Positions 6,203-64,000 of a DNA stretch of 64,000 nt are shown piece by piece. The translations under genes were made by a program, and so were the position numbers. The DNA is taken from contig JAGTRB010000010.1 in NCBI GenBank assembly GCA_018396865.1, positions 7,967-71,966 of the forward strand, read 5' to 3'. The notes beneath the pieces are model-generated. The model searched no databases. It was not told where the DNA came from and was given only the letters and a program-made list of their open reading frames with translations. Origin of the DNA: Candidatus Bathyarchaeota archaeon (GTDB lineage Archaea > Thermoproteota > Bathyarchaeia > TCS64). How positions within the stretch are numbered: position 1 is the stretch's first letter; every line of letters begins with the position of its first letter.

Positions 6203-7206
6203 CTCAGTGGATCCCCTTCTAGATTGCCCCAAGGGCATCTGGGCCTCCCAGCCGTGAGGACGGCGACGCATGAGACATCTTCAAGCCTCTCCCGCTCCGA
6301 GACCTTCCTCAAGGCGGCCAGAGCAGAGGCCGATGCTGGAAGTACAGATAGCCCCTCTAAGGAGGCAAGCAACTCAGAATAGTGGGCCATCTCCTGGTCT
6401 GGCACTGGGACCGCCCAGCCCCCGCTCTCCCATAAAGCGTCGAGGGCCAGCTGACCGTCGAAGGAGTGCCAACTCACCAGGGGCTCATTAACCACGGTCT
6501 CCTTAATCTCCGAGGGTTGGAGATCCTCTATCATCCTCCTCCCGGAGAGGAAGCTCCTGACTATTGGGTTGTCATGAGGTGTGCTCACGGCGATCATCCT
6601 GGGTATCCCACCGGACACCCCATCATCGTGGAGCATCCTGAAGCCATGATAGACCCCTGAAAGGGTGGTTCCATTACCCACGGGAACCGCCACCACATCG
6701 GGCGTATACCCCAGCTCCCTGTAGATCTCGAGGGCTATGGAGGCATAGCCTCTAAGCGAGGCAATAGTGTTCTGCTCCACCCCAGGGTTGGCGTCATACC
6801 AATCGTTCTCCCTCGCCTCCCTCGATGCCAGCTCAACAGCATCCTCATAAGTTCCTTCAACGAGGTGGATGAGGGCTCCATATCCGGCTATCTCCCTAAG
6901 CCTCCCCCCGCTGTAGCTGGATGGGATATAGATGTGGGCCCTCATCCCATAGAGGGGGGCGAAGTAGGCGAAGGAGGCACCGAAGTTACCGCACGTAGCT
7001 ATGGCTAAGGAGTTGTAGCCACCCTTCCTAGCCTCCTCCAGGCACTCCACCGCCGCGCGATCCTTATGGGATCCTGTAGGGTTGGAGCCCTCAAGCTTGA
7101 GGTAGAGGCGTCTACAACCCACGAGGGATTCCAGGCTTCTAGAACGGAGTAGGGGTGTCCCACCTATCATATGGGACTTATCCGGGGGCTCGTCGAGCTC
7201 CTCCAT
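6199..7206 (-). CDS. PLP-dependent fold-type II enzyme (threonine synthase / cysteine synthase-like)
   Basis: GSHKDRAA lysine motif and a glycine-rich loop (VPVGNGTT) typical of tryptophan-synthase-beta superfamily enzymes; 335 aa. Confidence 0.65.
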   Translation of the reverse strand: MEELDEPPDKSHMIGGTPLLRSRSLESLVGCRRLYLKLEGSNPTGSHKDRAAVECLEEARKGGYNSLAIATCGNFGASFAYFAPLYGMRAHIYIPSSYSGGRLREIAGYGALIHLVEGTYEDAVELASREARENDWYDANPGVEQNTIASLRGYASIALEIYRELGYTPDVVAVPVGNGTTLSGVYHGFRMLHDDGVSGGIPRMIAVSTPHDNPIVRSFLSGRRMIEDLQPSEIKETVVNEPLVSWHSFDGQLALDALWESGGWAVPVPDQEMAHYSELLASLEGLSVLPASASALAALRKVSERERLEDVSCVAVLTAGRPRCPWGNLEGDPLR

Positions 7207-7325
7207 CCTTCCCCTTGATGACCTCGATCCATCAACGTATATTGAGATGAATATATACTTTGTGAATTAGACACGAACAGGAGGCCCGCAACACCTTTAA
7301 TTCACAGTTAAACAGTTTCTGTTGG

Positions 7326-10214
7326 ATGCCCCCTGTCTTCGGGCTGCTACATCCCATCATAAGGGAGGCCCTAGAGGAGTCAGGAATACATGAGCCTACA
7401 CCTTCTCAGGAGATGGCTATAGGCCCGATCATGGAGGGGGATAATGTCCTTCTCGTAGCACCGACCGCCAGTGGTAAGACTGAGGCTGCCCTCCTCCCGG
7501 TCTTCGACCACCTCCTGAGGGATGAGAAGAGGGGTGGCGTAAGAGCCATCTACATAACCCCCCTGAGAGCCCTTAACAGGGATCTGATGAGGAGGCTCAA
7601 CTTCTGGAGGGATAGGCTGGGTATAGATATCCAGGTTAGGCATGGAGATACAGGGGCTGGAGAGAGGCGTAGACAGGCGGAAAGGTCCCCGGAGATGCTC
7701 ATAACAACCCCTGAGACCCTCCAAGCCCTCCTTCCCTCTGAGAAGATGAGGAGCCACCTTTCCTCCACGGGGTGGGTTATAGTTGACGAGATCCATGAGA
7801 TCGCATCTTCTAAGAGGGGTTCACAGCTCTCAGTGGGCCTAGAACGCCTAGAGAAACTGACGGGGAAACCTTTCCAGAGAATAGGCCTCTCGGCCACTGT
7901 TGGAAACCCAGATGAGGTGGCATCCCTCCTGGGGGGAAGGCGCAATGTATCCATTATAGTCGTCGAATTGGAGAAGCCCTTCGAATATAGGATGGAGTAC
8001 CCAACTCCAGAGGATCTGGACTTCGATCTATCATACGAGCTTGGAACCACGGCGGAGGCAGTCTCCAGGCTCAGGAGGTTAAGGATGCTGGTCGAGGGGC
8101 ATGCCTCAACCCTCATCTTCGCCCAGGGGAGGGGGCAGGTTGAACTCCTAGGGAATAGGCTCCTCAGGATTGAGCCTAGGATAGATGTCCATCACGGTTC
8201 TCTATCGAGGGAGGAGAGGCAGAGGGTAGAGGACCAGCTTAAGGAGGGTATTCTAAGGGGTATAGTCTGCACCTCCACCCTCCAGCTTGGAATAGACATA
8301 GGGACTATAGACCTATGCATCCAGTACCTGAGCCCGAGGAGGGCCTCAACCCTAATACAGAGGGTTGGGAGATCGGGGCATAGGCTGGAAAGGCGTTCAA
8401 AGGGGGTCATAATACCAGCCTATGGGGAGGACGCCCTAGAGTCGGCGGTTATCATTGGGAGGGCTGAGAGGGGGAAGGTTGAGAGGTTGGATATACCGGT
8501 GAAGCCTCTAGATGTCTTGGCGCATCAATTAACCGGCCTCGCACTTGACATGAGGGGGGTTCGGAAGGATGAGGCGTACGAGGCCATTGCCGGGGCATAC
8601 CCCTATAGAAGCCTTGATAGAGGGGAGCTAGATGAGGTTGTCGGGTTCATATCATCCATGGGCCTTATCTCAGATGACGGGGGCATCCTAAAACCCACCG
8701 GGAAGGGGCGTAGATACTACTACATGAACCTCAGCATGATAAGGGATGAGAGGCGCTACCCATTTGTCAACCTCGTAACGGACAGGGTAATAGGAACGGT
8801 TGGAGACGAGTTCTGGACCCTGAGAGCCCGGGTGGGATTGAATGTCATCATGAGGGGGAGGGTCTGGAAGATCATCCACATAGACGATGAGAGAGGCATC
8901 CTATTCGTCCTCCCCTCGGAGGACCCTCTAGGAGCCCTGCCGGGCTGGGATGGGGAGCTCATCCCCGTCCCAAAGGAGGTAGCGTTGGAGGTGGGGGAGA
9001 TGAGGGAGAAGATAGCCTCCGAGATCACCAGGCTGGGCTCGGCTGAGAGGGTTGTTGAGAGCCTGTCGTCTTCCATGAATGTCGAAGCCGAGGCGTTGAA
9101 GGCTATGGTGGGGGAGGTGGAGATGCAGCTTTCCCATGGATTCCCAATACCTTCTGGGAGGAGGATGGTTCTAGAGGGATATGAGAGGTACCTCATCGTT
9201 CACAGCTCCTTTGGGGAGAAGGTGAACAGGACTCTGGGCTGCATCTTCGACGCCATCCTTTCGGATCATGACATGATATATAGCTGGTGGAACGACGCAT
9301 ACAGGATCCTAGTAGAGGCTCCCAGTAGATTAAGCGGAAAGGACCTCGAGGAGATGGAGGCTTGGCTCCTCCACATATCAGGGGAGGAGGCGGAGAGGAG
9401 GCTCTTGGAGTTCATGGAGGCAAGGTTCCCCTTCGGATACATGATGAGGTTTGTGGCGGAGAGGTTCGGGGCGATCCCTAGGGGGAGAACCCTCAGCCCA
9501 AGGGAGCTAGAGAGGCTTCAGGAGAGGTTCAGGGGCACCCCAATATACATAGAGACCTTAAGAGAGGCTTACAGGGAGAAGCTGGACCTTGATGAGGTGA
9601 AGAGGATTCTAGGCTCCATCAGGTCTGGCGAGATAGAGGTTGTTAGGGTTATGAGGGGTAGGCCAAGCCCCCTAGCCAGGCACGTGCTGGAGAAATACGC
9701 CGATATCCCTGAGCTCTTGGCCTCCAGATTCTCCATGGATGATCAGTTGGACTACATGAAGAGAAGCATAGATTCAAGGAAGGTGAACTTGGCATGTATG
9801 GGGTGTGGGGGATGGAGCAAGTCCAGCAGGGTGAGGGAGCTTGCGGAGGCCCCGGCCTGCGATGCCTGCGGCTCCAGGCTCCTAGCGGTCCTGAAACGGG
9901 GGCAGACCCCGGAAGCATTCCTCTCGATGGTTAAGAGGTGGATGAAGGGAGAACCCTTAGATGGAGGGGAGATGGAGGCCATCTCTTATGGGAGGAGGAC
10001 GGCTGATCTGGTCCTCTCCCATGGGAAGAGGGCTGTAATAGCCTTAACAGTTCAAGGGGTTGGACCATCAACAGCCTTCGGCATCCTATCTAGGATGCAT
10101 AGAGATGAGAGAGAATTCTATAGGGATCTACTGAGGGCTAAGATAAGATACATAAGGACTAGACCATATTGGGATGAGGATGGACTCGACAGGCAGAGGT
10201 TGAAGGCTCGGTGA
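7326..10214 (+). CDS. lhr: Lhr-type large ATP-dependent DEAD/DEAH-box helicase
   Basis: Walker A (APTASGKTEAA), DEIH box and helicase C motifs. Length 962 aa with a C-terminal domain carrying a Cys4 zinc ribbon, as in archaeal Lhr/Lhr2. Confidence 0.75.
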   Translation: MPPVFGLLHPIIREALEESGIHEPTPSQEMAIGPIMEGDNVLLVAPTASGKTEAALLPVFDHLLRDEKRGGVRAIYITPLRALNRDLMRRLNFWRDRLGIDIQVRHGDTGAGERRRQAERSPEMLITTPETLQALLPSEKMRSHLSSTGWVIVDEIHEIASSKRGSQLSVGLERLEKLTGKPFQRIGLSATVGNPDEVASLLGGRRNVSIIVVELEKPFEYRMEYPTPEDLDFDLSYELGTTAEAVSRLRRLRMLVEGHASTLIFAQGRGQVELLGNRLLRIEPRIDVHHGSLSREERQRVEDQLKEGILRGIVCTSTLQLGIDIGTIDLCIQYLSPRRASTLIQRVGRSGHRLERRSKGVIIPAYGEDALESAVIIGRAERGKVERLDIPVKPLDVLAHQLTGLALDMRGVRKDEAYEAIAGAYPYRSLDRGELDEVVGFISSMGLISDDGGILKPTGKGRRYYYMNLSMIRDERRYPFVNLVTDRVIGTVGDEFWTLRARVGLNVIMRGRVWKIIHIDDERGILFVLPSEDPLGALPGWDGELIPVPKEVALEVGEMREKIASEITRLGSAERVVESLSSSMNVEAEALKAMVGEVEMQLSHGFPIPSGRRMVLEGYERYLIVHSSFGEKVNRTLGCIFDAILSDHDMIYSWWNDAYRILVEAPSRLSGKDLEEMEAWLLHISGEEAERRLLEFMEARFPFGYMMRFVAERFGAIPRGRTLSPRELERLQERFRGTPIYIETLREAYREKLDLDEVKRILGSIRSGEIEVVRVMRGRPSPLARHVLEKYADIPELLASRFSMDDQLDYMKRSIDSRKVNLACMGCGGWSKSSRVRELAEAPACDACGSRLLAVLKRGQTPEAFLSMVKRWMKGEPLDGGEMEAISYGRRTADLVLSHGKRAVIALTVQGVGPSTAFGILSRMHRDEREFYRDLLRAKIRYIRTRPYWDEDGLDRQRLKAR

Positions 10215-28452: not shown

Positions 28453-29205
28453 GTGAGGAATGAGTTGAAGAGGAGGATAAAGGCTGGGGGACAGGCCCTG
28501 GGCGTTTGGGTGACCATAGAGAGCCCGATAGTCACCGAGCTCCTATCCACCCTGGGCTTCGACTACCTGGTCTTCGACACCGAGCACAGCCCTCTGGACA
28601 TATATCAAGCCCAGACCCTGATGCAGGCCATCAGGGGAAGCGGAACCACCCCAATAGTCAGGGTTTGGTGGAATGACATGGTCGCGATCAAGAGGGCCCT
28701 CGACATAGGGGCCTATGGGGTCGTCATACCCTGGGTGAATAACAGGGAGCAGGCCGAGATGGCCGTGAAGGCCTGTCTATATCCACCAAGGGGCCTTAGG
28801 GGATGCGGACCAAGGAGGGCGGCTCTACTGGACCCAGAATACCTTAAGACAGCAGACGATGAGATCCTAATAATAGCTCAGATAGAGACGAGGGAGGCCG
28901 TGGAGAGGATAGAGGAGATCGTCTCGGTTGAGGGCATCGACGTGACCTATATAGGTCCATCAGACCTATCAGCCTCATACGGCCACCTGGGAGACATGGG
29001 GCACCCGGAGGTCCAAGAGGCGATTGACAGGGTATTCGACGCCTCCAGGGAGGCCGGAGTGGCGACAGGCATCCACATGGGCTCTGGAAAGCCTATCATC
29101 GAGAGGGTAAAGAAGGGATACAACCTGATAACTGTGGGAAATGACCTGGGCTTCGTGAGATCTGGAGCTATAGAAGTCTTAAAAGGGCTTGGAAAGAAGG
29201 TTTGA
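28453..29205 (+). CDS. HpcH/HpaI-family 2-keto-3-deoxy-acid aldolase
   Basis: Family-typical length and motifs (e.g. IAQIET). GC-rich like the surrounding genome. Confidence 0.7.
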   Translation: MRNELKRRIKAGGQALGVWVTIESPIVTELLSTLGFDYLVFDTEHSPLDIYQAQTLMQAIRGSGTTPIVRVWWNDMVAIKRALDIGAYGVVIPWVNNREQAEMAVKACLYPPRGLRGCGPRRAALLDPEYLKTADDEILIIAQIETREAVERIEEIVSVEGIDVTYIGPSDLSASYGHLGDMGHPEVQEAIDRVFDASREAGVATGIHMGSGKPIIERVKKGYNLITVGNDLGFVRSGAIEVLKGLGKKV

Positions 29206-29282
29206 AAATTTTATTTTAAATTTTAAAGTAGTTATTCGAAACTCTTTTAAGTAATAAAATAAATGAAGTTGGAGGTGTTGAT

Positions 29283-30044
29283 TTGGTTTATATTGATGCT
29301 CATACGCATTTTGGAAAGGGGATGCCTCAGGGGATACCGCCAGAAGGTGTGGAAAAATATATTCAAATGATGGATAAGATCGGCATGAATGCGGTTATTA
29401 TAACTCCCTGTTATGCTTCAATATCCCCTGATAGAACCTATGATGAGGCAAATAGACTTCTTGCTAATGCCATGAAGAAATATCCAGATAGGCTTTTTGG
29501 TTTAGCTAGAGTCAACCCGCATTTTATGAAGAGATCCGTTGAAATTGCTGAGAAATACCTGAAAGAGGGCTTCTGGGGGATTAAATTTCATCCCCGAAAT
29601 GAAGCTTTTCCAATAAATCATAAGGATCTGGTTTTTCCAATAATGAAAAAGGTAGAGGAGCTCGGCGGGCTTGTGCTATTTCACAGCGGCTGTCCTGTCT
29701 ATTCGCATCCTACTCTCGTAGGAGATGTTGCTGATAATTTTCCAGAAGTCCCGATAATTATCGGTCATATGGGTGGCCGGTTTGTGGACGACGCCATTCT
29801 GGTTGCTAAGTGGTTTGATAATGTTTTTATAGATACTAGTTTCTGCAGAGGCGTTGGTTACATTGAAAAGGCTGTCGAAGTAGCGGGAGCCGAAAAAGTT
29901 TTATATGCATCAGACTACCCGCAGGGGAGCATGGAAGTTGAAACTTTGAAAGTTAAGTTGGCCGAGATATCGAGCAGGGATAAGGAGTTAATATTGGGAA
30001 GAAATATAAAGAATATTTTATTATCTATAAGAAAAGAGAGGTAA
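29283..30044 (+). CDS. Amidohydro_2 (PF04909) TIM-barrel metal-dependent hydrolase, predicted active
   Basis: IDAHTH metal-binding motif, HMGG and a D(Y)P acid motif. Confidence 0.7.
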   Translation: MVYIDAHTHFGKGMPQGIPPEGVEKYIQMMDKIGMNAVIITPCYASISPDRTYDEANRLLANAMKKYPDRLFGLARVNPHFMKRSVEIAEKYLKEGFWGIKFHPRNEAFPINHKDLVFPIMKKVEELGGLVLFHSGCPVYSHPTLVGDVADNFPEVPIIIGHMGGRFVDDAILVAKWFDNVFIDTSFCRGVGYIEKAVEVAGAEKVLYASDYPQGSMEVETLKVKLAEISSRDKELILGRNIKNILLSIRKER

Positions 30045-30050
30045 TGTAAT

Positions 30051-30806
30051 TTGAAAGTTATTGATGCCCTTTCGTATGTTGGAAAAAGTGTATATTTCAA
30101 GAGGGAGTTTAAGGTGGAGGATCTAATTGAGCGAATGAATATGAATGGAATAGTAATGGCAGTTATAACCGCTCCACCTCCTGGGCCAGATTATACAGAG
30201 GCTAACAAAATTGTGTATGAAGCTGTGAAGAAATATCCAGAAAGTTTAATAGGTTTTTACAAAATGAATCCCTGGTTTGGAAAGGAAGAATTAGAGAGAG
30301 CAAAATCTGCCATAAAGGAATGGAACTTCAAGGGTTTAAAACTAGATCCGAAAGACGATGGATATAACGTCAATGATCCTATAGTGACCCCGGTGATGAA
30401 ATTGGCGGAGGAACTTGAGATACCGATATTCTTCCAATCCGGCGACTCAGACTTCTGTCCACCTGAGAAGGTAGTGCTCCTGGCGATCTCCTTTCCAAAC
30501 GTGACCGTTATGATGCAGCATGGAGGCTCTGATATAGTGACCCTCCTAGCTACCCACCCCCTCCTTTGCGATAGGACGAGAAATCTAGTACTTGGAACTC
30601 ATCCCCTAAGAGGCTCAGGACCCGATGGGGCGGACCGATCCTTGAAGAATCTACCTAAGGCTTTAGAGAGAAACATCGTGTTTACATCTGAAATGCCCTT
30701 CGGATATCCCGAACTGGAACTGAAAATCATTGAACTAACAAATCTGAATAAAGAGATTAAGGAACTAGTTTTAAGAGAAAACATCAGAAGGATTTTAAAG
30801 ATATAG
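30051..30806 (+). CDS. Amidohydro_2-like paralogue with degenerate metal site (predicted non-catalytic)
   Basis: Colinear with the upstream gene, but IDAHTH becomes IDALSY, HMGG becomes QHGG and SDYPQG becomes SEMPFGYP. Lies 6 nt downstream of its paralogue. Confidence 0.6.
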   Translation: MKVIDALSYVGKSVYFKREFKVEDLIERMNMNGIVMAVITAPPPGPDYTEANKIVYEAVKKYPESLIGFYKMNPWFGKEELERAKSAIKEWNFKGLKLDPKDDGYNVNDPIVTPVMKLAEELEIPIFFQSGDSDFCPPEKVVLLAISFPNVTVMMQHGGSDIVTLLATHPLLCDRTRNLVLGTHPLRGSGPDGADRSLKNLPKALERNIVFTSEMPFGYPELELKIIELTNLNKEIKELVLRENIRRILKI

Positions 30807-30910
30807 TTTTCTAGATCCCTTTTTTATTATATTTTAAATCAAACTCTTCACTACGAATTTTATTAACCGTAAATTTTAAATATATCTTTGAAATTGTCGG
30901 TAAGTGAAAA

Positions 30911-31687
30911 ATGGTCGCAATAAGATATACTTTAGTTGGAGCAATGCTAATTTTACTGATTGCCCTATATGCTATCTGTTTATACTTGATAAAAAGGGGG
31001 AGGTTCCCGACGTTTCGAGCGCTCCCTGGTCTGCTTGCCATAGATGAATGTATTGGAAGAGCTACAGAGATGGGGAAACCCGTCCTATTTACGGCTGGTC
31101 GAGGAGAGTTATATGAGTCTGGAGTGGGAACAATACTTGCAGGATTCGCTATATTGGGCAAAGTCGCAGAAGAATGTGTAAAGAAAAATACTGAGCTTAT
31201 TGTAGGTATTGGGACTGCTGCACATATCCCTATAATCACAAGTATTGTAGAACAAGCCTATTTAGCTGGAGGATCACCTGAGAACTTCAAGCCTGAAAAC
31301 CTGATCTTCCAAGGAGGAACGCAGTACTCCCAGATAGCAGGGATATGTGGCATTCTAGAAAGTAGAAAACCAGCAGCCTTCATAGCAACTGGCGGTTTTG
31401 CAGCTGATGTTTGCACATTAGGAGTGGTTGCGAGAGGTGTAGGAGCTTTATCGATATCTGGGCTTACTAATTATTACCAATTCCCCTATGCTGTCGCCGC
31501 CTACGACTACTGGCTTTTAGGAGAGGACCTGCTAGCAGCTTCTGCTTCCCTCACGAAGGAGCCTGGACAGGTATCAAACATCTGGAGCGGTGATCTCTTC
31601 AGATTCATATTGGTGGGCATAATTATACTTGGATTCATCGTATCATGGCTGGGATTTGATTTCTTCATAAAATACTTTAAACCTTAG
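30911..31687 (+). CDS. bitopic membrane protein (N- and C-terminal TM helices flanking a ~190-aa Gly-rich domain), unknown function
   Basis: Hydrophobic termini, with a stop-start overlap with the next gene. Confidence 0.5.
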   Translation: MVAIRYTLVGAMLILLIALYAICLYLIKRGRFPTFRALPGLLAIDECIGRATEMGKPVLFTAGRGELYESGVGTILAGFAILGKVAEECVKKNTELIVGIGTAAHIPIITSIVEQAYLAGGSPENFKPENLIFQGGTQYSQIAGICGILESRKPAAFIATGGFAADVCTLGVVARGVGALSISGLTNYYQFPYAVAAYDYWLLGEDLLAASASLTKEPGQVSNIWSGDLFRFILVGIIILGFIVSWLGFDFFIKYFKP

Positions 31688-31690
31688 GAG

Positions 31691-32338
31691 GTGTGTAAAA
31701 TGAGTTTTCTTAGAAAAAGGGAGATTCCCATGGGAATTATATTGATAGTAGCTTTGCTATGCATTTTCGACTACTTTATTACAGGAATAATTGAACTATC
31801 TAATGTTGTGAAAATGATTGGGAATTGGGCAATCGTGATCTCAGCAATAGCTATGGGTCTTGGAATGCTGAACTTACTTGTAGTAAATGCTAGAAACATT
31901 ATGCAAAGAAGAGGGAACTACTTTTATAGTTTATGGACTATAATAGTCATGTTGCTTACATTTTTCCTCGCTGCATATGGAGGTATGGACTATCCACCCT
32001 ACAAATGGATCTTTGATAACATATATCAACCAACAGGACAGGCCTTCTTCGGCCTATCATTTCTCTACACGTGTGCAGCTGCTTACATAGCCTTCAGGGT
32101 GAGAACACTAGAAACCTCCATGCTTCTAATAGCGGGCATTATAGGTATGATAGGAAGGACACCAATAATTTTAACCCTCTGGGGTGGCTTCACCCCGATA
32201 TCTGACTGGATCACTAACGTTCCAGGAGGAGGGACTTTTGCGGCATTCAAAATAAGCATTGGTCTGGGAACTATTTTGATAGGGATAAGAACCATACTCG
32301 GAATCGAAAGATCTTATCTGGGAGAGGAGATAGGTTGA
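31691..32338 (+). CDS. polytopic membrane protein (~6 TM), unknown function
   Basis: Six hydrophobic segments; overlaps the downstream gene by 4 nt. Confidence 0.5.
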   Translation: MCKMSFLRKREIPMGIILIVALLCIFDYFITGIIELSNVVKMIGNWAIVISAIAMGLGMLNLLVVNARNIMQRRGNYFYSLWTIIVMLLTFFLAAYGGMDYPPYKWIFDNIYQPTGQAFFGLSFLYTCAAAYIAFRVRTLETSMLLIAGIIGMIGRTPIILTLWGGFTPISDWITNVPGGGTFAAFKISIGLGTILIGIRTILGIERSYLGEEIG

Positions 32339-33189
32339 CATCAGAAAGAAAAAGTTTGGCTGAAAAGATTCTAACAATTAATCCAAAAATTGTGATGATA
32401 ATTTTACTGATTTTACTTATCATACCTTTAGCTAAGCCGTTAGCTCTTCCACTTGCAATAAGCAAAAACACTAAACATTTCTACGAAATTATAGATAGTT
32501 TTAATCCTGGAACAAAAGTGCTTTTCAGTTATATACCGACCACTGCAACAATGGGTGACCTATGCCCTCCATCCGTACCAGTGATTTATCATCTGTATAC
32601 AAAACAGGCGAAAATCTATTTCGTAGGAGTTGGGGTGGCGGATGGAATATTGACCTTAATAGATACACAGGTTTTTTCTACGATCCCACCGCAGAGATTT
32701 GGATATAAGTATGGAGAAGACTGGTGTAATCTAGGCTTTCTTGCAGGTGGAGATATATCTTGGGCAACATTCGCTAAAGATATTAGAGCAGCCGTAAAAT
32801 TTGATAGATATGGAAATCCAATAGATAGTCTTCCAATGATGAAAGGAATAAACTCTATAAAAGATTTTGATTATGTAATACATTGCGGGGAGTCTATCAC
32901 AATCCTTGTCCGGCAGTGGGGTGACCCATATAAAATGCCGCTTCTCGTGATATCAACAACCGCCGCAGTACCTATGGATGTTATACCATTCTATAGAACA
33001 GGTCAAATATATGAGTATCTAGGTGGGTTAGGCGCCGGAGCTGAATATGAGAAGTTAGTAAATAGACCAGGTAAGGCGATAGCATCGGTGGATGCTATCA
33101 CATTAACTCACCTATTTCTAATAGGTATAATCTTGCTAGGTAATATAGTTTACTCTTCAGTGAGATTAAGGGGAGGAAAGGTAAGATGA
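32335..33189 (+). CDS. bitopic membrane protein with large central domain (second copy of the module), unknown function
   Basis: Same architecture as 30911..31687; overlaps the downstream gene by 4 nt. Confidence 0.5.
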   Translation: MTSERKSLAEKILTINPKIVMIILLILLIIPLAKPLALPLAISKNTKHFYEIIDSFNPGTKVLFSYIPTTATMGDLCPPSVPVIYHLYTKQAKIYFVGVGVADGILTLIDTQVFSTIPPQRFGYKYGEDWCNLGFLAGGDISWATFAKDIRAAVKFDRYGNPIDSLPMMKGINSIKDFDYVIHCGESITILVRQWGDPYKMPLLVISTTAAVPMDVIPFYRTGQIYEYLGGLGAGAEYEKLVNRPGKAIASVDAITLTHLFLIGIILLGNIVYSSVRLRGGKVR

Positions 33190-33803
33190 TATCAACTGAT
33201 GTAGGGATATGGGTCTCAGTTATTCTAATAATATGTGTCTTAACTTTTATTATCAAGGATACACCTCTGTTTAGATTTTCTGAAAGTACCATTGTGGGAG
33301 TGACTGCGGGAGTGCTTGCTGCGCAGGGACTACAGAATGTTAAAAATCTCGCATGGAATCCTCTAATAACCAAAGCTGACTACATAAATATCATACCAAT
33401 CATCTTGGGAATCCTCGTTTTTACAAGGATTTCAAAGCAGATTGCTTATATAAGCAGGATACCGGTCGCCTTAATGCTCGGAGCTGGGGTCGGGGTCGCT
33501 GTAACTAGGACGATGGCAACTGAGATAATCCAGCAGGCTGCCGGTCTTTTTAAACCAATGCCAGCTGCAACGCCGGATATCATAAATCAGATCATCTTTC
33601 TATTATGTACCGTGGGAGTCCTTCTATTCTTCACATACACAAGAGCCCATGTTGGCGGATTGGGGATCTTAACAAAGATAGGAAGATATGCTTTGATGCT
33701 TGGTCTGGGCTCGATATACGCTGGACACATATACGCAAGGGCAGCGTGGCTCCTCCCAATACTCCAAAGAATAGTATGGGACTGGCTTGGAATAACCCTG
33801 TGA
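33186..33803 (+). CDS. polytopic membrane protein (~6 TM), unknown function
   Basis: Six hydrophobic segments; last gene of a 6-gene plus-strand operon. Confidence 0.5.
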   Translation: MISTDVGIWVSVILIICVLTFIIKDTPLFRFSESTIVGVTAGVLAAQGLQNVKNLAWNPLITKADYINIIPIILGILVFTRISKQIAYISRIPVALMLGAGVGVAVTRTMATEIIQQAAGLFKPMPAATPDIINQIIFLLCTVGVLLFFTYTRAHVGGLGILTKIGRYALMLGLGSIYAGHIYARAAWLLPILQRIVWDWLGITL

Positions 33804-33862
33804 AACTTTACTCTCCCCATTTTTATTTATTAAAACTTTATAAAGATAAAAGACATTTTTAA

Positions 33863-34903
33863 TCATTTTAGTATCTTTTCGATTACTCTTAAATTGTTGC
33901 CCCCCAAGATCTTAGTGATATCTTCATCTGAATATCCTCGAGCTACTAATCCTCTTGTAATGTTCGGAACCTTTGATATATCATCCAACCCAGGGAAACC
34001 ACAGCCTCCATCGAAATCTGAACCGAGACCTACATGGCTGGGCCCAACAAGGTCTATGACATGATCTAGATGATTAAGCCAATCATCCAAGCTCACTTTT
34101 GATAGTTCCTCTCTCGATGTGACATCTTTCATGAAGCCACCGCAGAAACTCAAGTTTATAACTCCATCATTCCTTGCCAAGGCTTCTATTTGGTCATCTT
34201 TAAGGTTTCGATGATGATCGTATAACGCCCTGCAGTTAGAATGAGAAGCAATCACTGGATCCTTAGTTATCTTCATAACATCCCAAAATCCAATCTCATT
34301 GAGATGTGAAACATCTATGATCATTCCAAGTCTGTTCATCTCCTTTACAACTTCAACCCCAAACTCAGATAGATGAGACCCTGAATCAAAGAGAGATCCA
34401 TCACCCAACTCGTTTCTATAGAAGTGGGTGAGGGTGATGGATCTAACCCCAAGCTTATAGAGCATCCGCAAAACTCCAAGATCCCCCTCTAATACCTCAC
34501 CTCCTTCTATTGAGATAATTGCAGCTATTCTTCCACTATCAACGATGTCCATTATGTCTTGATATTTTATAGCTAGAGCTATGTCACTTGAATTTTTCTC
34601 TATCTCTGAGTAAAATACATCTAGCATCTGAAGAAGTCTTCTGAGCCTTCGACCCCTATAGATAGGACGAGAGACCACCATTGCAAAGAAGAGACAGTCC
34701 ACTCCTCCCTCTCTAATTCTAGGTATGTCTACCTGACCCTCGATAGACCTCTCGCCGAGGGTACGTTTCAGTGTGAACTCTACGCCGTGTGGCACGGGGC
34801 CAGACATTAAATCTTGAATGGTATCATTATGGGTGTCCACAACAATGGATTTACGGTGAATGGTTAATGCTCTTTCCTCTTCTTCCATTGTAAGTCTAAA
34901 CAT
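33863..34903 (-). CDS. membrane dipeptidase, peptidase M19 (renal dipeptidase) family
   Basis: VDTHNDT N-terminal motif and M19-like metal ligands; 346 aa. Confidence 0.75.
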   Translation of the reverse strand: MFRLTMEEEERALTIHRKSIVVDTHNDTIQDLMSGPVPHGVEFTLKRTLGERSIEGQVDIPRIREGGVDCLFFAMVVSRPIYRGRRLRRLLQMLDVFYSEIEKNSSDIALAIKYQDIMDIVDSGRIAAIISIEGGEVLEGDLGVLRMLYKLGVRSITLTHFYRNELGDGSLFDSGSHLSEFGVEVVKEMNRLGMIIDVSHLNEIGFWDVMKITKDPVIASHSNCRALYDHHRNLKDDQIEALARNDGVINLSFCGGFMKDVTSREELSKVSLDDWLNHLDHVIDLVGPSHVGLGSDFDGGCGFPGLDDISKVPNITRGLVARGYSDEDITKILGGNNLRVIEKILK

Positions 34904-35227
34904 TAAGCAAACACCTCATCATGTATTGTTAAATGTATCTTATTTATTTTTAAATTTTTCTGTGATAAGACCATCCTTTGAACTAAGAAAATAGTTTAAA
35001 ATACGGATAAAAATCAAAATCCCTGTAAAATCATTAAATAATAAATCAATTTTTATCCACATTGATTTTATTATAGAGAAAATGGACCCGGAAGTGTTAC
35101 ATACATGTTGTTTTAAATATTTTTATATAGAAGTAAATAATATTTCAGAGTCAGAATTTAATAGTTTGATGGGCTTTTATTTTTTATTTATTATTAAATT
35201 TCCTCATCTTATGATATGCTGTGGGTC

Positions 35228-36436
35228 TTACTCAAACTCTATTGTTCCCGGGGGCTTTGGGGTGACATCATAGTAGATGCTGGAGACCATTTCACACTTA
35301 TTCAGGATCTTTCTTGACAGCTCCTCCAGCGCTCTCCACGGGATTTCCGCTGGCAGGGCCCTCAGGAAGTCCTCGGTGGTTACCGCTCGTAGGGCGATGG
35401 AGTACCCCCTCTTTTCCTCTCTGTCTATTAGGTATAATATTCTGGTTATCTCAGGGTGGTGTTCTTGGAGTCTAATCCTCATCCTTTCAAGCACTTTGGG
35501 ATCGTAGGATCTAGCCCTAGTGGTGGGCTCCGGGATCTCTACTTCTGCTATCAGTCCATAGGAGCGCTTTCCCTCTATGATGCCTGTGGCCCTTTCCTTC
35601 GGGAGCTTGACCTCAGCCTGGGATGGGTCTAGGCCGAGAGCCCTTGACGCCTCTATCGATAATGCCTTTGAGGGCTCTGATTCCATTCCTAGGATGGCTG
35701 GGAAGTACTGGTCAGGCTCGTGGGATTCAAGCTCTTTTTCTACGATCTCGGTGGCTGCCTTCAGGGTTTCAAGCTTCTCCAGTGTGACCTCTCCAAGAAC
35801 CCTGATGGAGAGGCCTGGGCCTGGGAAGGGCTGCCTCTCTGAGATGGCCTTCGGAACCCCAAGGTATCTTGCGACCTCCCTCACCTGCTCCTTGTATAGA
35901 TCCGAGATGGGCTCCAGAACCCTCAGGCCGTATCTCTCAGCGGGGTCGATACCTATCTGCTCTAGGACATTGTGCTGGGTCTTGATCCCCCTCTCTGTCT
36001 CTACGATATCGGCCCTTATCGTCCCCTGAACCAGGAAGCTGCAGTTCTCCCTCTGCGATACCTCCCCTAGGGTTCTGTAGAAGGCCTCCCTGAAGGCCTT
36101 CCTCTTCTCCTCCGCGTCCCTCAAGCCCTTCAAGGCCTCCATGAACATGTCCCTCTCATCCACGATCTTTACTTGGAGGTTCAATGGTGGTGAGGATAGG
36201 AGTCCCCTGACTCTTTCAGGCTCTCCTTGACGCATGAAGTTGTCGTCGATGAATATGCAGAGGAGCCTATCCCCAAGGGCCCTCCTCGCTATGACGGCGG
36301 AGACCGTGCTGTCCACCCCTCCTGAGACAGCTACCAGGGCCCTCCCATCCCCGACAGCCCTTCTGATGGCCTCAACCCTCTCGGATATGAGCCTTGGGAT
36401 ATCCAGGCTTCGCATGCCTAAAGATCGGAGGGGCAT
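35228..36436 (-). CDS. guaA: GMP synthase, ATP-pyrophosphatase subunit B
   Basis: PP-loop VSGGVDSTV and the GMP-synthase dimerisation C-terminus ending PGTIEFE. Confidence 0.85.
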   Translation of the reverse strand: MPLRSLGMRSLDIPRLISERVEAIRRAVGDGRALVAVSGGVDSTVSAVIARRALGDRLLCIFIDDNFMRQGEPERVRGLLSSPPLNLQVKIVDERDMFMEALKGLRDAEEKRKAFREAFYRTLGEVSQRENCSFLVQGTIRADIVETERGIKTQHNVLEQIGIDPAERYGLRVLEPISDLYKEQVREVARYLGVPKAISERQPFPGPGLSIRVLGEVTLEKLETLKAATEIVEKELESHEPDQYFPAILGMESEPSKALSIEASRALGLDPSQAEVKLPKERATGIIEGKRSYGLIAEVEIPEPTTRARSYDPKVLERMRIRLQEHHPEITRILYLIDREEKRGYSIALRAVTTEDFLRALPAEIPWRALEELSRKILNKCEMVSSIYYDVTPKPPGTIEFE

Positions 36437-37462: not shown

Positions 37463-38215
37463 TCATATAATCCTGAGCTCTGGCCTATGGAACTCCTCCG
37501 TAGCCTTCAGGATCCATATCCCTTCTTTCACTCCCCTTTCGATAAGGCCTGGAAGTGGGAGGCATACATAAATTACCTTTATGAGATTCCTCCTAAGCAT
37601 CTCCGGGTGATTCAGTCTAAGTCTCTCAATCTTCCTTAATAGCTCCTCGGCTATCTCTGTTCCTCCCCTCACAGTCGACTCTCCAACCACGCAGAGGTCA
37701 TTCGTCGCGCCATAGATGTTGAGTTCCATATCGGGGAGGATCAGCGAGGTCAAATCTAATTCGACCCCAAGCTCGTTTCTAATTCTCCACTTCAAAATGG
37801 ACTTGGCCTCATCCTCAACATCCACAGTGAGCTTCTCCAAGGTTCGTTCAACCCTGTTCAGCCTCCCCTCCATCCTATTAATAGTAGCCAGCATCTTATT
37901 GAAGTCCTCCCTGAGCTTAATCTGCTCCTCCCTAAGACCCTGAATCTCCTTCCAGATCTTACCCTGCTCCTCCCTAAGACCCTGAATCTCCTTCCAGATC
38001 TTACCCTGCTCCTCCCTAAGACCCTGAATCTCCTTCCAGATCCTATTCTGGCCTTTCCTGAGTCTAACTTGTTCCCTCCTGAGGTTAACCAGCTCCTCGG
38101 TGATGGAGTCGAGTCTCTTTAGGATCTCAGATAGGCCTAGGTATCCTGCAACCGCGTATCTGAACTCGATATCGCTGTCGAGAAGCTGTAGGAAATCCCT
38201 CTTCGCAGCTTCCAT
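37463..38215 (-). CDS. coiled-coil protein with 14-aa tandem repeats (DUF3782-like)
   Basis: Three repeats of GKIWKEIQGLREEQ and a conserved C-terminal region (VIYVCLPLPG). Both flanks are AT-rich. Confidence 0.6.
   Translation of the reverse strand: MEAAKRDFLQLLDSDIEFRYAVAGYLGLSEILKRLDSITEELVNLRREQVRLRKGQNRIWKEIQGLREEQGKIWKEIQGLREEQGKIWKEIQGLREEQIKLREDFNKMLATINRMEGRLNRVERTLEKLTVDVEDEAKSILKWRIRNELGVELDLTSLILPDMELNIYGATNDLCVVGESTVRGGTEIAEELLRKIERLRLNHPEMLRRNLIKVIYVCLPLPGLIERGVKEGIWILKATEEFHRPELRII
37925..38050. repeat. 42-nt tandem repeat x3 inside the coiled-coil gene (two identical copies plus one diverged)
   Basis: The unit CTCCTCCCTAAGACCCTGAATCTCCTTCCAGATCTTACCCTG is directly visible with a period of 42 nt. 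Confidence 0.9.
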
Positions 38216-42896: not shown

Positions 42897-43073
42897 ATAT
42901 TCCGGCTACTCCACCGATATCCCATTTAGCCTTAAGGGAGTTTCATGATCACTTCTTATATAGGTAGCATATTTTTGATTGATATTCAGTACACATTTTT
43001 CTATGTATATTTCGCCCTATCCTTATATGGAAAAATCTTATTAGGAACTTGAAATATTTTCATTTGATGTAAG

Positions 43074-44009
43074 TTGAGTGAATCGGTAAAAAGGGCTCTG
43101 GAAAAGATCGGCATTCCAGGTAGAGATTTGTATGATCTTCCAACATCGAAGAAAACATTCCCAGATGGATGTAACTATAGGATAGAGATCTCAGGGGTTG
43201 AGAGGCCAGAGGTATTGGAGGCCTTAATCGACGAGAGGGATAAGAGGGATGTGCCCGTCCATAGGCTCATCAGCATGTGTATGGGGGCCACCCTTCTCGA
43301 CGATAGGGAGATTGTAAGGTTCGCCGAACTCGCAAGGGACGCGAGGATGGAGGTGATAGTAGTGCCAGGGCCCAGGCCCTCCTGGGATATAGGGAGGCAG
43401 GTCTTGACGGAGGAGGGGAAGAGGAGCGGATTCAGGCACAGGGGCTGTGACCAGCTCAACTACTTCATCTCCGATATGATGAGGTGCTATGAGCTCGGGA
43501 TCAGGGGCGTCATGGTCACCGACGAGGGGCTTCTATGGGCCATCACCGAGCTCAAGAAGATAGGGGAGCTCCCAAGAGACATCAAGGTGAAGCTCTCCGT
43601 CTGGGCTGGCTGTGCGAACCCCGCAGGGGCAAAGCTGATAGAAAGCCTGGGGGCCGATACCTTCAACCCCGTTGGCGACCTGACTCTCCCCATGTTAGCA
43701 TCGATAAGAAGTGTGGTGAACATACCTATGGATGTCTACATCTACTTCTTCGAGTCATTCGGGGGCAGCAATAGGTTCTGGGAGACCCCCGAGATAGCTA
43801 GGATAGCCTCGCCATGCTACTTCAAACTCGAGCCTGAGACCTCTTCGGGAGAGGCATACAAGCCCTGGACCGACCCTAAGAAGCTGGCCTTTCTGGCGAG
43901 GGAGAAGGTGAAGTACGCCGAGATAATCATGAACCTGATCGATAAACATTACCCGGAGGCTAAAATCTCGGAGCAAGGCGCAAGCGACCTAGCCATACCA
44001 AAGCCTTAA
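43074..44009 (+). CDS. conserved hypothetical protein (possibly TIM-barrel enzyme)
   Basis: 311-aa ORF with coding-like composition; family not recognised with confidence. Confidence 0.4.
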   Translation: MSESVKRALEKIGIPGRDLYDLPTSKKTFPDGCNYRIEISGVERPEVLEALIDERDKRDVPVHRLISMCMGATLLDDREIVRFAELARDARMEVIVVPGPRPSWDIGRQVLTEEGKRSGFRHRGCDQLNYFISDMMRCYELGIRGVMVTDEGLLWAITELKKIGELPRDIKVKLSVWAGCANPAGAKLIESLGADTFNPVGDLTLPMLASIRSVVNIPMDVYIYFFESFGGSNRFWETPEIARIASPCYFKLEPETSSGEAYKPWTDPKKLAFLAREKVKYAEIIMNLIDKHYPEAKISEQGASDLAIPKP

Positions 44010-44181
44010 AACGGCGTATCTCATTACCCCATTTTTATTCCCCATTAATTCAGTATAAATGGTCTCTTTGAGCTTTTAAGATTCAGAATCATTTTTGAAT
44101 AGAAATAACAATTTTTATAGGCGAAGAAATTCATATAATATTTAATTGATAATATTTAGGTTCATTGGAGTTTTTTTGAGT

Positions 44182-60555: not shown

Positions 60556-62004
60556 TTAGAAGGTCCTGGCGACGATGGCCACATGCCTGGCATCACCGCC
60601 GCATATTATGCATGGGCCCTTAGCCTCCTCAGCCCCATCCCAGGGGGTTCCTCTCACCTCTCCCGCCACCTCATCCTTTATTCGGAAGGCGCAGTCTGGG
60701 TCCCCGCACCAGTTCACCTTGACTATCTTCCTCTCCTCTATCTGGGCCTTCAGCTCATCGATGTTCTCCGCCCAGACCACCTCCCTCTCCAGGCGTCTCC
60801 AGCTCCTCTCCCTCAGGTTTTGATAGATCCTCTCGAGGAGATCCTCAACCCTTTCCTTTAATTCCTCAAGCTTTGCCTTGCTCCTCTCGAAGGTGTCCCT
60901 CCTTACCAGGGTGACTGTCCTTTCATGGAACTCTGAGGGGCCCACCTCGGCTCTTAGGGGGACCCCGTACATCTCCCACTTGTAGTACTTCTCACCAGGC
61001 CTCAGGCGGTCGTCATCGTCTACAGCAACCCTTATGCCCTCCCTCTTTAGGGTGGCCTCAACCTCCCTAGAATACTTCTTGACGCTCTCCTCGAATCCCT
61101 TGAAGGGTATGGGTACTATGATGACTTGGACTGGGGCCACGGCTGGTGGTAGGATCAATCCATGGTCATCTCCGTGGTGGGCTATGACGGCGGCGATCAC
61201 CCTCCCTATCCCCATCCCGTAGCAGGTTGTTGAGGCGAGGCGGCGTTCCCCATTCTCGTCCTCGTAATCTAGCTCGAAGGCTTTCGCGAAGTTCTCACCG
61301 AGCTCGTGGACTGTTCCGATCTGGTTCACCTTCCCGTCTGGGTTCCAGGTGTCGAAGGCCACGCTGTAGTCGGCCCCTGCGAACTTGTCGAAGTCGGGTC
61401 TTCGGAGGATTAGGTAGCTGAGGCCTAGGCGGTCGTAGACATACCTGTATATCTCGACCCCCTTCCTCACCTGTCTCTCAGCGTCCTCGTAGTCCTTGTG
61501 GGCTGTGTGGGCCTCGTTCCATAGGAACTCCCTCCCCCTGTATAGTGGCCTGGTTGCTTTGGTCTCGTAGCGGTATACGTTGCAGGTCTGGTGGACCCTC
61601 AGGGGGAGGTCGGCGTGGCTCCTTATCCAGAGCTTGAATAGGGGGTAGATAGCCGTCTCCGACGTCGGCCTGAGGAGGAGCCTCCTATCAAGCTTTGTAT
61701 CCCCGGCGTGGGTTATCCAGAAGACGCTGGCGGCGAAGCCCTCTATGTGCTCTGCCTCCCTCATGAAGGCGTCCTCGGGTATGACCACTGGGAACTGGAC
61801 CGGCTGGTGGCCCTCCTCCTCAAGCCTCTCCTCCAATATCCGGGCTATGGCCCTCGCTATCCTGTAGCCCCAGCCCATGTAGACCGTGAAGCCCTTCACC
61901 GGGTATCGGTCGTCCACTATCTGGGCCTCCAGGATGACCCTCTCAAACCAGCCTGTGAAGTCCTCATCCTTCTGCATCATCAAGCCCCTGAGACTAAACT
62001 TCAC
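60556..62004 (-). CDS. proS: prolyl-tRNA synthetase, archaeal/eukaryotic type
   Basis: Class II motifs and a C-terminal zinc-binding domain (CIICGG); 482 aa. Confidence 0.9.
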   Translation of the reverse strand: MKFSLRGLMMQKDEDFTGWFERVILEAQIVDDRYPVKGFTVYMGWGYRIARAIARILEERLEEEGHQPVQFPVVIPEDAFMREAEHIEGFAASVFWITHAGDTKLDRRLLLRPTSETAIYPLFKLWIRSHADLPLRVHQTCNVYRYETKATRPLYRGREFLWNEAHTAHKDYEDAERQVRKGVEIYRYVYDRLGLSYLILRRPDFDKFAGADYSVAFDTWNPDGKVNQIGTVHELGENFAKAFELDYEDENGERRLASTTCYGMGIGRVIAAVIAHHGDDHGLILPPAVAPVQVIIVPIPFKGFEESVKKYSREVEATLKREGIRVAVDDDDRLRPGEKYYKWEMYGVPLRAEVGPSEFHERTVTLVRRDTFERSKAKLEELKERVEDLLERIYQNLRERSWRRLEREVVWAENIDELKAQIEERKIVKVNWCGDPDCAFRIKDEVAGEVRGTPWDGAEEAKGPCIICGGDARHVAIVARTF

Positions 62005-62496
62005 GATCCATAACCACTTTATAAATGGACCGCCTTGGAGTCATGCTTAATCAGTCCCCTAGATGGAGGCTCATCTTTAGGCTGATGATGGTCTACCTGT
62101 GATGGCTGGGTTCACTCAACCTGTTCGTCTGGATATGTATCCTCTTTATCCTCATGTTTTAGTCGTTGAGCATTTCGCCCTTGCTGACTGGAGGATATAG
62201 TAGGACGGGATCAGACTGACTTTTTTATTTATTATTTATCATATTGATTAAAATTGTTGCCACTTATGGTTTTGAGATGTTTTTCTACAATTTTTAATAA
62301 ATTTGTTATCCATAACTGTCACGGGTTTGTTCTTCAATTCCGCTTGAATATATGGCGCATCGTAGAGGCTGAGAAGATAATTAGATGTCTTAGAAGTTAG
62401 AGATATTCTGAATTATTGTTAATGGAGGTGTTAGTGGTGATAGTGGTACCTCCCCGATAACCCTTATAGAGCCCTGAACTCACCCTTTATTGAAGG

Positions 62497-62922
62497 TTGT
62501 TCGACGCGAAGGAGTTCGAGAGGTGGTTCCTCCAGGCTAGGGATACCTTAGAGAGCGCGTATGAGGATCTGAATAATAAGAAGTATAATTGGGCTTGTTT
62601 CAAGGCTCAACAGGCCGCAGAATACGCTGTTAAGGGGCTCATTTATGGACTGGGCTCGATTCCTATAGGCCACTCCGTGCTGAGGCTTTTGGGAAGACTC
62701 AGGAGGAGGGGAGTAGACGTTGAGGGGGTTATGGGATATGCTAGGGTCCTGGATAGACATTATATTCCAACCAGGTATCCAAATGCCCATCCCGAGGGGC
62801 CGCCATATGAGTATTATGATGAGAGGACAGCTAGGGAGGCCTTGGAGGCCGCCGAGAAGATCTTAGGGGCAATTGAGATGGAGGGGGAGAGGAGGAGGGG
62901 TGAGGCCTCGGATACCCTATAG
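62497..62922 (+). CDS. HEPN domain protein (toxin of HEPN/MNT pair)
   Basis: HEPN fold with an R-x4-6-H-like motif (RYPNAHPEG); overlaps the downstream MNT gene. Confidence 0.6.
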   Translation: MFDAKEFERWFLQARDTLESAYEDLNNKKYNWACFKAQQAAEYAVKGLIYGLGSIPIGHSVLRLLGRLRRRGVDVEGVMGYARVLDRHYIPTRYPNAHPEGPPYEYYDERTAREALEAAEKILGAIEMEGERRRGEASDTL

Positions 62923-63322: not shown

Positions 63323-63485
63323 CTTAGAGCTGATAAATTGCGCCATATTAAACGGCGTTATCAGTTTTTCTGCTCTTATGATGAGAAAAACCATTTATCG
63401 AACCCGTAAAGGCACAGATATTTATTCGACTTAAACCTTAAAGATTCATAATTAAAAAATTTATATTTATAAATTTGAATAAGCT

Positions 63486-63878: not shown

Positions 63879-64000
63879 CGCCCTCTATCCTCCCTTATTA
63901 TCTCAGCGATCTCCTCGTCGCTTATGTGCTCAAGCCTCCCGCTCAGCTCAACAGCCCTCTCCCTAAGCCTCTCTAGGAGAACCCTCCTGACCTCCTCCTC
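63875..64000 (-). CDS. vapB: VapB-like antitoxin (partial, runs off the window edge)
   Basis: Short helical C-terminus (…SGRLEHISDEEIAEIIREDRGR*) with a TTGA stop/start overlap with the PIN gene. Confidence 0.5.
   Translation of the reverse strand, partial: EEEVRRVLLERLRERAVELSGRLEHISDEEIAEIIREDRGR

Follow-up and report, generated by a model that had tools for sequence, protein, structure and literature searches.

We analysed a 64,000-nucleotide stretch of a Candidatus Bathyarchaeota archaeon contig (JAGTRB010000010.1 of assembly GCA_018396865.1; hereafter the window), focusing on an AT-rich island that carries seven genes (g1 to g7) and lies between the convergent genes for an aldolase and for GMP synthase subunit B. 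A contig near-identical to the window (99.9%) exists in assembly GCA_038852475.1. An earlier reading of this DNA (the original prediction) had pictured the island as a horizontally acquired module that hydrolyses an amide or lactone substrate at the membrane, or takes one up. Its gene inventory, comprising an Amidohydro_2 pair with one degenerate member, four membrane proteins and a convergent M19 dipeptidase, agrees with our Pfam and open reading frame (ORF) analysis. The features of the locus are listed below in window coordinates, with comparison loci given by number (as L011), transmembrane abbreviated to TM, insertion sequence to IS, and G+C content at third codon positions to GC3.

28453..29205, plus strand: left flank, HpcH/HpaI-family aldolase, a host gene (GC3 0.68; Pfam HpcH_HpaI, E 8e-44)
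29206..35227, no strand: AT-rich island of 6022 nt, an insertion/deletion between the convergent aldolase and guaA genes
29283..30044, plus strand: g1, Amidohydro_2 TIM-barrel hydrolase with a TTG start (PF04909, E 8e-29, 101.8 bits, cut-off 26.4)
30051..30806, plus strand: g2, paralogue of g1 at 30% identity (PF04909, E 2.5e-12, 47.6 bits, cut-off 26.4)
30807..30910, no strand: spacer of 104 nt (GC 0.22) that divides g1-g2 from g3-g6; site of an IS insertion in L011 and L012
30911..31687, plus strand: g3, DUF6754 protein, a TM helix, a cytoplasmic Rossmann-like alpha/beta domain with an invariant GRATEMG motif, and a TM helix
31700..32338 (alternative GTG start at 31691), plus strand: g4, polytopic, about 5-6 TM helices, motifs AAYRAFRAR and C-terminal GIERSYLG, no family
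32335..33189, plus strand: g5, a TM helix, an extracytoplasmic alpha/beta domain and a TM helix, no Pfam family
33186..33803, plus strand: g6, polytopic, about 5-6 TM helices, motifs FRFAE, SR.P and FFFS, no family
33863..34903, minus strand: g7, M19 (renal-type) dipeptidase, soluble, convergent with g6 (PF01244, E 3e-100, 335.8 bits, cut-off 26)
34904..35227, no strand: AT-rich spacer of 324 nt (GC 0.238) upstream of g7, at the right island end
35228..36436, minus strand: right flank, GMP synthase subunit B (guaA), a host gene (GC3 0.67; Pfam GMP_synt_C and NAD_synthase, NCBIfam guaA_Cterm)

The island, its boundaries and its history

The island has a GC content of 39.6%, about 9 standard deviations (sd) under the mean of the other 459 6-kb windows of the 64-kb sequence, which average 55.1% (sd 1.7%) and range from 51.5% to approximately 60%. 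The GC3 of its seven genes is 0.29-0.43, versus 0.67-0.69 for the genes encoding enolase, the aldolase, GuaA and P5CR, and by tetranucleotide profile it lies at a distance of 0.50 from the remainder of the window, compared to 0.10-0.16 for other chunks. The spacers between the island genes have a GC content of 0.19-0.24, and the shift in composition is completed within about 100 nt at either end.

Two relatives, L096 (a 152-kb contig) and L098 (82 kb), provide the empty site. Both share a 90%-identity aldolase cluster with the window and keep at least 10 genes per side in the same order, and in both the aldolase stop is separated from the guaA stop by 16 nt. BLAST homology to these contigs (about 82-83% nucleotide identity) ends at 29168, within the last aldolase codons, and restarts at 35229, in the guaA stop codon; the aldolase itself is 93% identical to its L096 orthologue at the amino-acid level. 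Because these relatives lack the segment and the breakpoints coincide with the coordinates originally proposed, the island is a true insertion/deletion. The abrupt change in composition reported at 29205, with its return at 35228, is thereby borne out by the GC and tetranucleotide profiles, which are far from uniform, and by the L096/L098 breakpoints. The segment from 29206 to 35227 is thus a discrete insertion/deletion of foreign composition that is missing from otherwise syntenic relatives, and it offers a clean natural accessory segment in Bathyarchaeia, with base-exact breakpoints and an available empty site.

The island shares with classical genomic islands and integrative elements a sharp composition break, presence/absence at a fixed site and, in a sister copy, an IS. 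It differs from them in having no integrase, tRNA target or flanking direct repeats, its site being instead a 16-nt spacer between convergent stops. No integrase domain was detected with Pfam among the island proteins, and tRNA and Rfam scans of the whole 64-kb window found nothing. The att-like or terminal direct repeats that the original prediction had proposed to look for at the island ends did not turn up beyond TTTTAAATTTT, an AT-only 11-mer common to both ends, sharing of this kind being expected in DNA with 20% GC.

Two further loci, L011 and L012, have all seven genes at this site, with 82-83% nucleotide identity to the window. The L011 counterpart of the 324-nt right spacer spans about 830 nt and holds an additional 128-aa ORF of no family. 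Between the window and L011, the ratio of nonsynonymous to synonymous divergence (dN/dS) is 0.035-0.093 for all seven genes (0.065 for g1, 0.093 for g2 and 0.044 for g7) at a dS of 0.8-1.1, indicating purifying selection. These values imply that all seven genes, including the degenerate g2, are functional and that the copies are old. The dS of the flank genes, at 0.69-0.77, is no larger than that of the island genes. Furthermore, the short L011/L012 flanks are 88-93% identical to the island-free L096/L098 and only 75-86% identical to the window, so that the presence or absence of the island departs from the flank tree. Either the island dates back as far as the group itself and one lineage lost it precisely, or it spread by repeated gain or recombination.

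Base composition supports a foreign origin for the island. Its AT-richness is kept in both island-bearing lineages, such that the foreign composition has persisted across roughly one substitution per synonymous site, and a related membrane cassette in L001 (66% identity) is likewise AT-rich (GC 0.33-0.39) with GC-rich flanks (0.5-0.63). In L011 and L012, an IS encoding a DDE_Tnp_IS240-type transposase of 219 aa sits precisely in the g2-g3 spacer (L011:1961-2620; L012:865-1524). Upstream of the L001 cassette there are weak remnants of a related transposase (7153-7296 and 7730-7939; E 3e-4 and 7e-3), and no remnants of an IS6/IS240-type transposase were found in the window. These positions make IS-mediated mobilisation a suggestive, not an established, route for the segment.

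An alternative history dispenses with horizontal gain by this lineage: the common ancestor of the window, L011/L012 and L096/L098 would already have had the segment, L096/L098 would have lost it precisely, and its AT-richness would have causes other than a recent arrival of foreign DNA. The closeness of the L011/L012 flanks to those of L096/L098 agrees with this scenario, as do an island identity between the window and L011 (83%) that matches the value for the window against L096 genome-wide (82-83%), an island-gene dS that at least matches that of the flanks, and the absence of an integrase, a tRNA and a terminal repeat. We nonetheless consider it rather unlikely, since a 15-point GC deficit and the low GC3 values found exactly within the insertion/deletion would still require an earlier foreign origin, the L001 cassette is equally AT-rich inside GC-rich flanks, and g3 is accompanied by IS6/IS240-type transposase genes or remnants in L011/L012 and, with weak matches, in L001. 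Moreover, an ancestral segment would alter the timing of the event and not the foreignness of the DNA. Of the originally proposed horizontal acquisition, therefore, the foreign composition and the empty site in L096/L098 stand, while a recent event is contradicted by a dS of 0.8-1.1 and the presence/absence pattern does not follow the flank phylogeny.

Hydrolase genes and the mosaic make-up of the island

Metal-ligand motifs, assigned by motif, are present in g1 as IDAHTHFG, FHSG, GHMGG and SDYP, corresponding to HxH, His, His and Asp. Enzymes of the ACMSD type use such a set, with an N-terminal HxH, two more His and an Asp on strand 8. Both g1 and g2 match PF04909 (ACMSD/LigW/LigI-type Amidohydro_2), a family that includes decarboxylases and lactonases, so that the label amidase is not established for g1. 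The nearest solved structure to g1 is 3cjp, a protein of unknown function, followed by LigW-type decarboxylases. In g2, in contrast to the family at large, the corresponding motifs (IDALSYVG, FQSG, QHGG and SEMP, assigned by alignment to g1) have lost the HxH and one His, and the Asp is replaced by Glu. Its low dN/dS indicates that g2 is not a pseudogene, and on these motifs it is probably a non-catalytic partner subunit of g1.

The g7 protein aligns to human renal dipeptidase and to Sco3058 (3id7; E 1e-47), with all the binuclear-zinc motifs of M19 renal-type dipeptidases (HxD, E, H, H, D) kept and aligned to 3id7 as DTHND, IEGGE, DVSHL, ASHSN and GSDFDG. Neither a membrane segment nor a signal peptide is predicted in any of the island hydrolases on reading of their sequences.

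The six plus-strand genes had been described as translationally coupled throughout. This holds for most junctions, with a gap of 6 nt between g1 and g2, a gap of 3 or 12 nt between g3 and g4 (depending on the g4 start), and 4-nt overlaps for g4/g5 and g5/g6, but the gap between g2 and g3 measures 104 nt. Because of this gap, which hosts the IS in L011 and L012, the plus-strand genes are better read as two units, g1-g2 and g3-g6. Pairs of the g1-g2 type occur without the membrane cassette in other archaea, at 52-61% identity to g2. One such pair lies near an integrase (L099), and another (L100) adjoins an Opp-type peptide importer of the ATP-binding cassette (ABC) class, with SBP_bac_5, two permeases and two ATPases. 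Conversely, among the 129 cassette loci described below, only the window lineage pairs the cassette with Amidohydro_2 genes. Three separable units (the g1-g2 pair, the g3-g6 membrane operon and g7) thus make up the island as a mosaic, and the original view of the seven genes as one module is not sustained.

The g3-g6 membrane cassette and its genomic contexts

The first membrane protein, g3, is a full-length match to Pfam DUF6754 (PF20539; E 3.1e-51, with 174.4 bits where 27 are required, residues 12-255 aligning to positions 16-256 of the 257-position profile) and carries the NCBI label 'DUF6754 domain-containing'. Its AlphaFold2 model (mean predicted local distance difference test score, pLDDT, 86.7) shows a Rossmann-like alpha/beta domain between two TM helices, and its invariant residues include R36, the GRATEMG motif, Q190, D199, E205 and D228. 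Bacterial g3 proteins bear a signal peptide, and often an FN3 domain, ahead of the first TM helix, which places the conserved domain of g3 in the cytoplasm. The AlphaFold2 model of g5 (pLDDT 89.2) has the same succession of TM helix, alpha/beta domain and TM helix. Both g5 ends are positively charged, and g5 relatives include an 838-aa form with about 560 aa of inserted repeats, beta-sandwich-like on sequence reading, and a 630-aa form with a tandem duplicated domain. Given the positive termini and the resemblance of these inserts to extracellular beta-sandwich repeats, the g5 domain is placed outside the cell. Such g5 variants are found in our representative library as P0301, P0334, P0290 and P0251, of which P0301 and P0334 (598 aa) are natural g5-g6 fusions.

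Neither g4 nor g6 gave a significant match in Pfam or NCBIfam, and profile searches of PDB sequences with either returned no hit at E <= 10. No ABC ATPase and no BPD_transp- or FecCD-type permease was detected in the island proteins with Pfam or NCBIfam at E <= 0.1, and these libraries likewise gave no match to DctM/DctQ, TctA/TctB or DctP/TctC. Paralogy within the cassette was considered and rejected, with hhalign probabilities of 0.8% for g3-g5 and 7.9% for g4-g6 giving no detectable relation in either pair. The original statement that the four membrane proteins lack a recognisable family thus stands for g4, g5 and g6 and falls for g3; its companion, that they belong to no known transporter class and are accompanied by no ATPase, agrees with the Pfam and NCBIfam searches and with the PDB profile searches for g4 and g6, none of which returned a characterised transporter family. 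The Pfam DUF6754 entry covers one of the four subunits and states no function, its partners g4, g5 and g6 being without a model. The literature searched contains no mention of DUF6754 or PF20539, and nothing relevant on PF13941, or on GlmL with Nitrospira.

The neighbourhood of these genes was then compared across 129 non-redundant loci from genomes and metagenomes. The one-strand order g3-g4-g5-g6 is complete in 95 of the 129 and truncated by contig ends but consistent in another 32, with a split g5 in only two. The window proteins match the hidden Markov models of the cassette with E-values of 1e-98 (g3), 1e-74 (g4), 5e-91 (g5) and 5e-72 (g6), and are homologous one-to-one to those of the bacterial locus L006 (best BLASTP segments at 38%, 26%, 28% and 25% identity for g3 to g6). 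Among the carriers are Bathyarchaeia, Clostridia, Symbiobacterium, Fermentithermobacillaceae, Nitrospira, Brocadiaceae, Zixibacteria and Cloacimonadota, as well as Poribacteria, Eisenbacteria, Sumerlaeota, Ignavibacteria and further groups. Species-representative genomes contain at least 578 stretches that match the cassette, and the g5 family, for which there is no Pfam model, comprises 5,525 clusters at 50% identity. The four genes g3-g6 are thus one copy of a widespread cassette with a fixed order, and the neighbourhood search proposed with the original prediction reveals this consistency across many bacterial and archaeal phyla. Six loci of the comparison hold two or three cassette copies, and such multiple copies were noted in L039, L052, L084, L086, L062, L017, L108 and L119, in tandem save for the convergent copies of L108, which suggests paralogous systems of differing specificity.

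A second module adjoins the cassette in 40 of the 129 loci, nearly all of them bacterial (for instance L018, L021, L055 and L086; coordinates 11687-15456 in L006). It is composed of two small membrane proteins (the 2-TM e138 and the approximately 90-aa f89), a GlmL-family ATPase of about 600 aa from the acetate and sugar kinase/Hsp70/actin (ASKHA) superfamily (PF13941, E 2e-122), and the 376-aa h376, a protein with weak lipoyl-like barrel-sandwich matches, including RnfC_N (E 2e-4) and NqrA_N (1e-3), which fall below the Pfam cut-offs. None of these four genes occurs in the 64-kb window. In bacteria of the FCB group (L021, L040, L044, L075, L086 and L015), the resulting 8-gene cluster lies between gcvH-like/gcvPA/gcvPB and the lipoate-protein ligase gene (lplA); the gene that comes next is often one for a TonB-dependent receptor bearing a CarboxypepD_reg domain. 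Universal partners beyond these eight core genes were sought by clustering 549 neighbours, and only lineage-specific sets emerged, such as Memo in Nitrospira, GcvP/LplA in the FCB group, and TonB receptors.

Loci that lack the GlmL-like module, most of them archaeal or on unassigned metagenomic contigs, repeatedly place the cassette beside amide-bond hydrolases, whose families vary:

M19 beside the cassette: the window lineage, L029, L126 and L120 (three copies, with a proline-racemase-family gene)
Amidohydro_3, 14-96 nt downstream of g6: L119, L134, L109 and L121
Amidohydro_1 pairs: L004 and L102
M24 prolidase-type gene, ending 2 nt ahead of g3: L107
M28 with Amidohydro_1: L014
M14: L001, and L119 (between two cassette copies)
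M20: L082, L023 and L025
S9 with a tricorn-like gene: L004
Class-A beta-lactamase-family gene: L108

The cassette-linked M19 genes represent four independent contexts, with M19 identities of 31-50%. Among 80 neighbours within two genes of the cassette in the metagenome set, the commonest are Amidohydro_3 (10) and Amidohydro_1 (9). Components of Opp transporters adjoin the cassette in L015 and L115. The link between the membrane proteins and hydrolases that the original prediction implied therefore recurs in unrelated loci and with several hydrolase families. As a separate observation, the M19 gene downstream of the cassette in L029, a Bathyarchaeota metagenome-assembled genome (MAG; L029:5084-6122), is split into two frames at about position 5840 by an assembly frameshift or as a pseudogene.

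Candidate function of the cassette

A constant membrane cassette accompanied by variable, substrate-specific soluble hydrolases (M19, M24, M20 and Amidohydro_1/2/3, the M19 and Amidohydro families being amidohydrolase-superfamily TIM barrels) is the pattern expected of an uptake system. On this basis we infer that g3-g6 form an undescribed multi-subunit importer feeding cytoplasmic hydrolases, a reading to which we assign a probability of roughly 45%. The four proteins would act as one complex importing small nutrients held together by amide bonds (dipeptides, short peptides or N-acyl amino acids, for example). In this complex g5 would be the tethered outer domain, serving in binding or gating, g4 and g6 would form the translocation path, and the cytoplasmic domain of g3 would have a coupling or regulatory role. 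The hydrolase encoded alongside, here a g1/g2 heteromer and the M19 dipeptidase, would then cut the imported substrate in the cytoplasm. Energy may come from an ion gradient in archaea and Bacillota, with the GlmL-like ASKHA ATPase module assisting in many bacteria. Of the two activities first envisaged, uptake followed by cytoplasmic cleavage is retained in this scheme, and hydrolysis at the membrane is disfavoured by hydrolases that have no TM segment or signal peptide.

A working analogy is with binding-protein-dependent secondary importers, the tripartite ATP-independent periplasmic (TRAP; DctPQM) and tripartite tricarboxylate (TTT; TctABC) transporters, which like the cassette combine several membrane subunits and an extracytoplasmic alpha/beta domain in an ATPase-free operon beside catabolic enzymes. 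The cassette nevertheless resembles none of DctM, DctQ and TctA in sequence or profile; its outer domain is tethered by two helices, whereas the TRAP/TTT binding protein is free or lipid-anchored; and it has an extra cytoplasmic alpha/beta subunit (g3), to which many bacterial versions add the GlmL-like ATPase module. Opp/Dpp peptide ABC importers occupy the same genomic niche, as seen in the Amidohydro_2 pair of L100 and in the Opp genes near the cassette in L015 and L115, but their ABC_tran, BPD_transp_1 and SBP_bac_5 domains are absent from the island. With one DUF, three unnamed families and no characterised or solved relative, the cassette is rated here as apparently outside known kinds. 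Generalising from the island copy, the cassette, often joined by the GlmL-like module, could tentatively be regarded as an unrecognised class of transport machine that feeds cytoplasmic amide-bond hydrolases and is unrelated to the ABC, TRAP, TTT, major facilitator (MFS) and phosphotransferase (PTS) systems; this broader proposal, which would encompass thousands of protein clusters in at least a dozen bacterial and archaeal phyla, is somewhat less probable than the importer reading itself.

If correct, these proposals would describe a new uptake architecture, in which two unrelated polytopic subunits are joined by two bitopic ones whose alpha/beta domains face opposite sides of the membrane, with an actin-fold ATPase as an optional addition. 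They would also explain what one DUF and three families without names do, which together span thousands of sequence clusters. Many carriers are uncultured protein-degrading lineages (Bathyarchaeia, Cloacimonadota, Zixibacteria and Fermentibacterota), alongside nitrifiers and anammox bacteria, and the capacity for peptide and amino-acid uptake would be inferred differently from metagenomes.

Several observations weigh against an importer. No energising component is present in the island, and the soluble domains of g3 and g5 match only generic Rossmann-like or DHS-like structures. A hydrolase of the tested families lies within 3 kb in only 19 of the 129 loci, and the density of hydrolases near the cassette (31 genes in 558 kb, versus 7 in 770 kb far from it) is inflated because the queries were chosen from cassette neighbours. 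Furthermore, the commonest co-directional neighbours in bacteria are not peptidases but Memo, the glycine-cleavage P protein, LplA and the GlmL-like module. As for the island itself, transfer is not the sole explanation of the insertion/deletion, given island-bearing flanks that are closer to the island-free relatives.

The main rival holds that the cassette is a housekeeping complex of the envelope or of membrane organisation, engaged in surface export or anchoring, or in remodelling with an actin-fold ATPase, and that its adjacency to hydrolases in some archaea is incidental. It stays viable because most bacterial contexts are not peptidolytic, and it would account for a very wide spread that includes the chemolithoautotrophs Nitrospira and anammox bacteria, for the frequent adjacency of the GlmL-like module, for the extracellular FN3 domain of bacterial g3, and for the 2-3 tandem copies of some genomes. 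The L006 cassette, moreover, comes after pilin-like N_methyl genes and a glycosyltransferase cluster, and that of a Bacillota MAG lies amid ribosomal and signal recognition particle (SRP) housekeeping genes. We regard such a complex as unlikely nonetheless: operon-like spacing (2-96 nt) to members of no fewer than six hydrolase families, in loci independent of one another, is hard to credit to chance, TonB-dependent receptors and Opp components follow the cassette in the FCB group as they do in nutrient-uptake loci, and the island copy is under strong purifying selection as accessory, not core, DNA.

A much less probable reading is that of an ion-translocating or energy-coupling module distantly analogous to transhydrogenase or Rnf/Nqr. 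The sub-threshold RnfC_N and NqrA_N matches of h376 point in this direction, and the two membrane subunits of about 200 aa in the cassette recall NqrD and NqrE, which are themselves membrane subunits of that size. However, the g5 domain is predicted to be extracellular, where NAD(P) is absent, no conserved Cys/His cofactor motif appears among the invariant residues, no Pfam Rnf-Nqr match was obtained at E <= 0.1, and both h376 and the GlmL-like gene are missing from the 64-kb window. Finally, AT-rich accessory DNA, presence/absence polymorphism and the IS in the sister copy might speak for a defence island, or for DNA carried as cargo by a virus or integrative element. This reading is extremely improbable and effectively refuted at the sensitivity of the PADLOC and PHROGs libraries, in which the seven proteins have zero matches, with no g3 relative found on viral contigs, no integrase, tRNA or att repeats, and a cargo of metabolic enzymes.

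Elsewhere in the window, a second insertion/deletion was noted at 42897-44177, where about 1.28 kb (GC approximately 0.50) stands against about 0.35 kb in L096, and which is collinear in L098. GC content also falls to 0.46 at the right end (62001-64000), which may be another atypical segment running off the window. A 250-aa coiled-coil protein, with an orthologue annotated as DUF8196, is encoded on the minus strand at 37463-38215 in a region with a GC content of 0.46-0.49, and its gene contains a perfect 42-bp tandem repeat of 2.9 copies (37922-38042) encoding repeated GKIWKEIQGLREEQ units.

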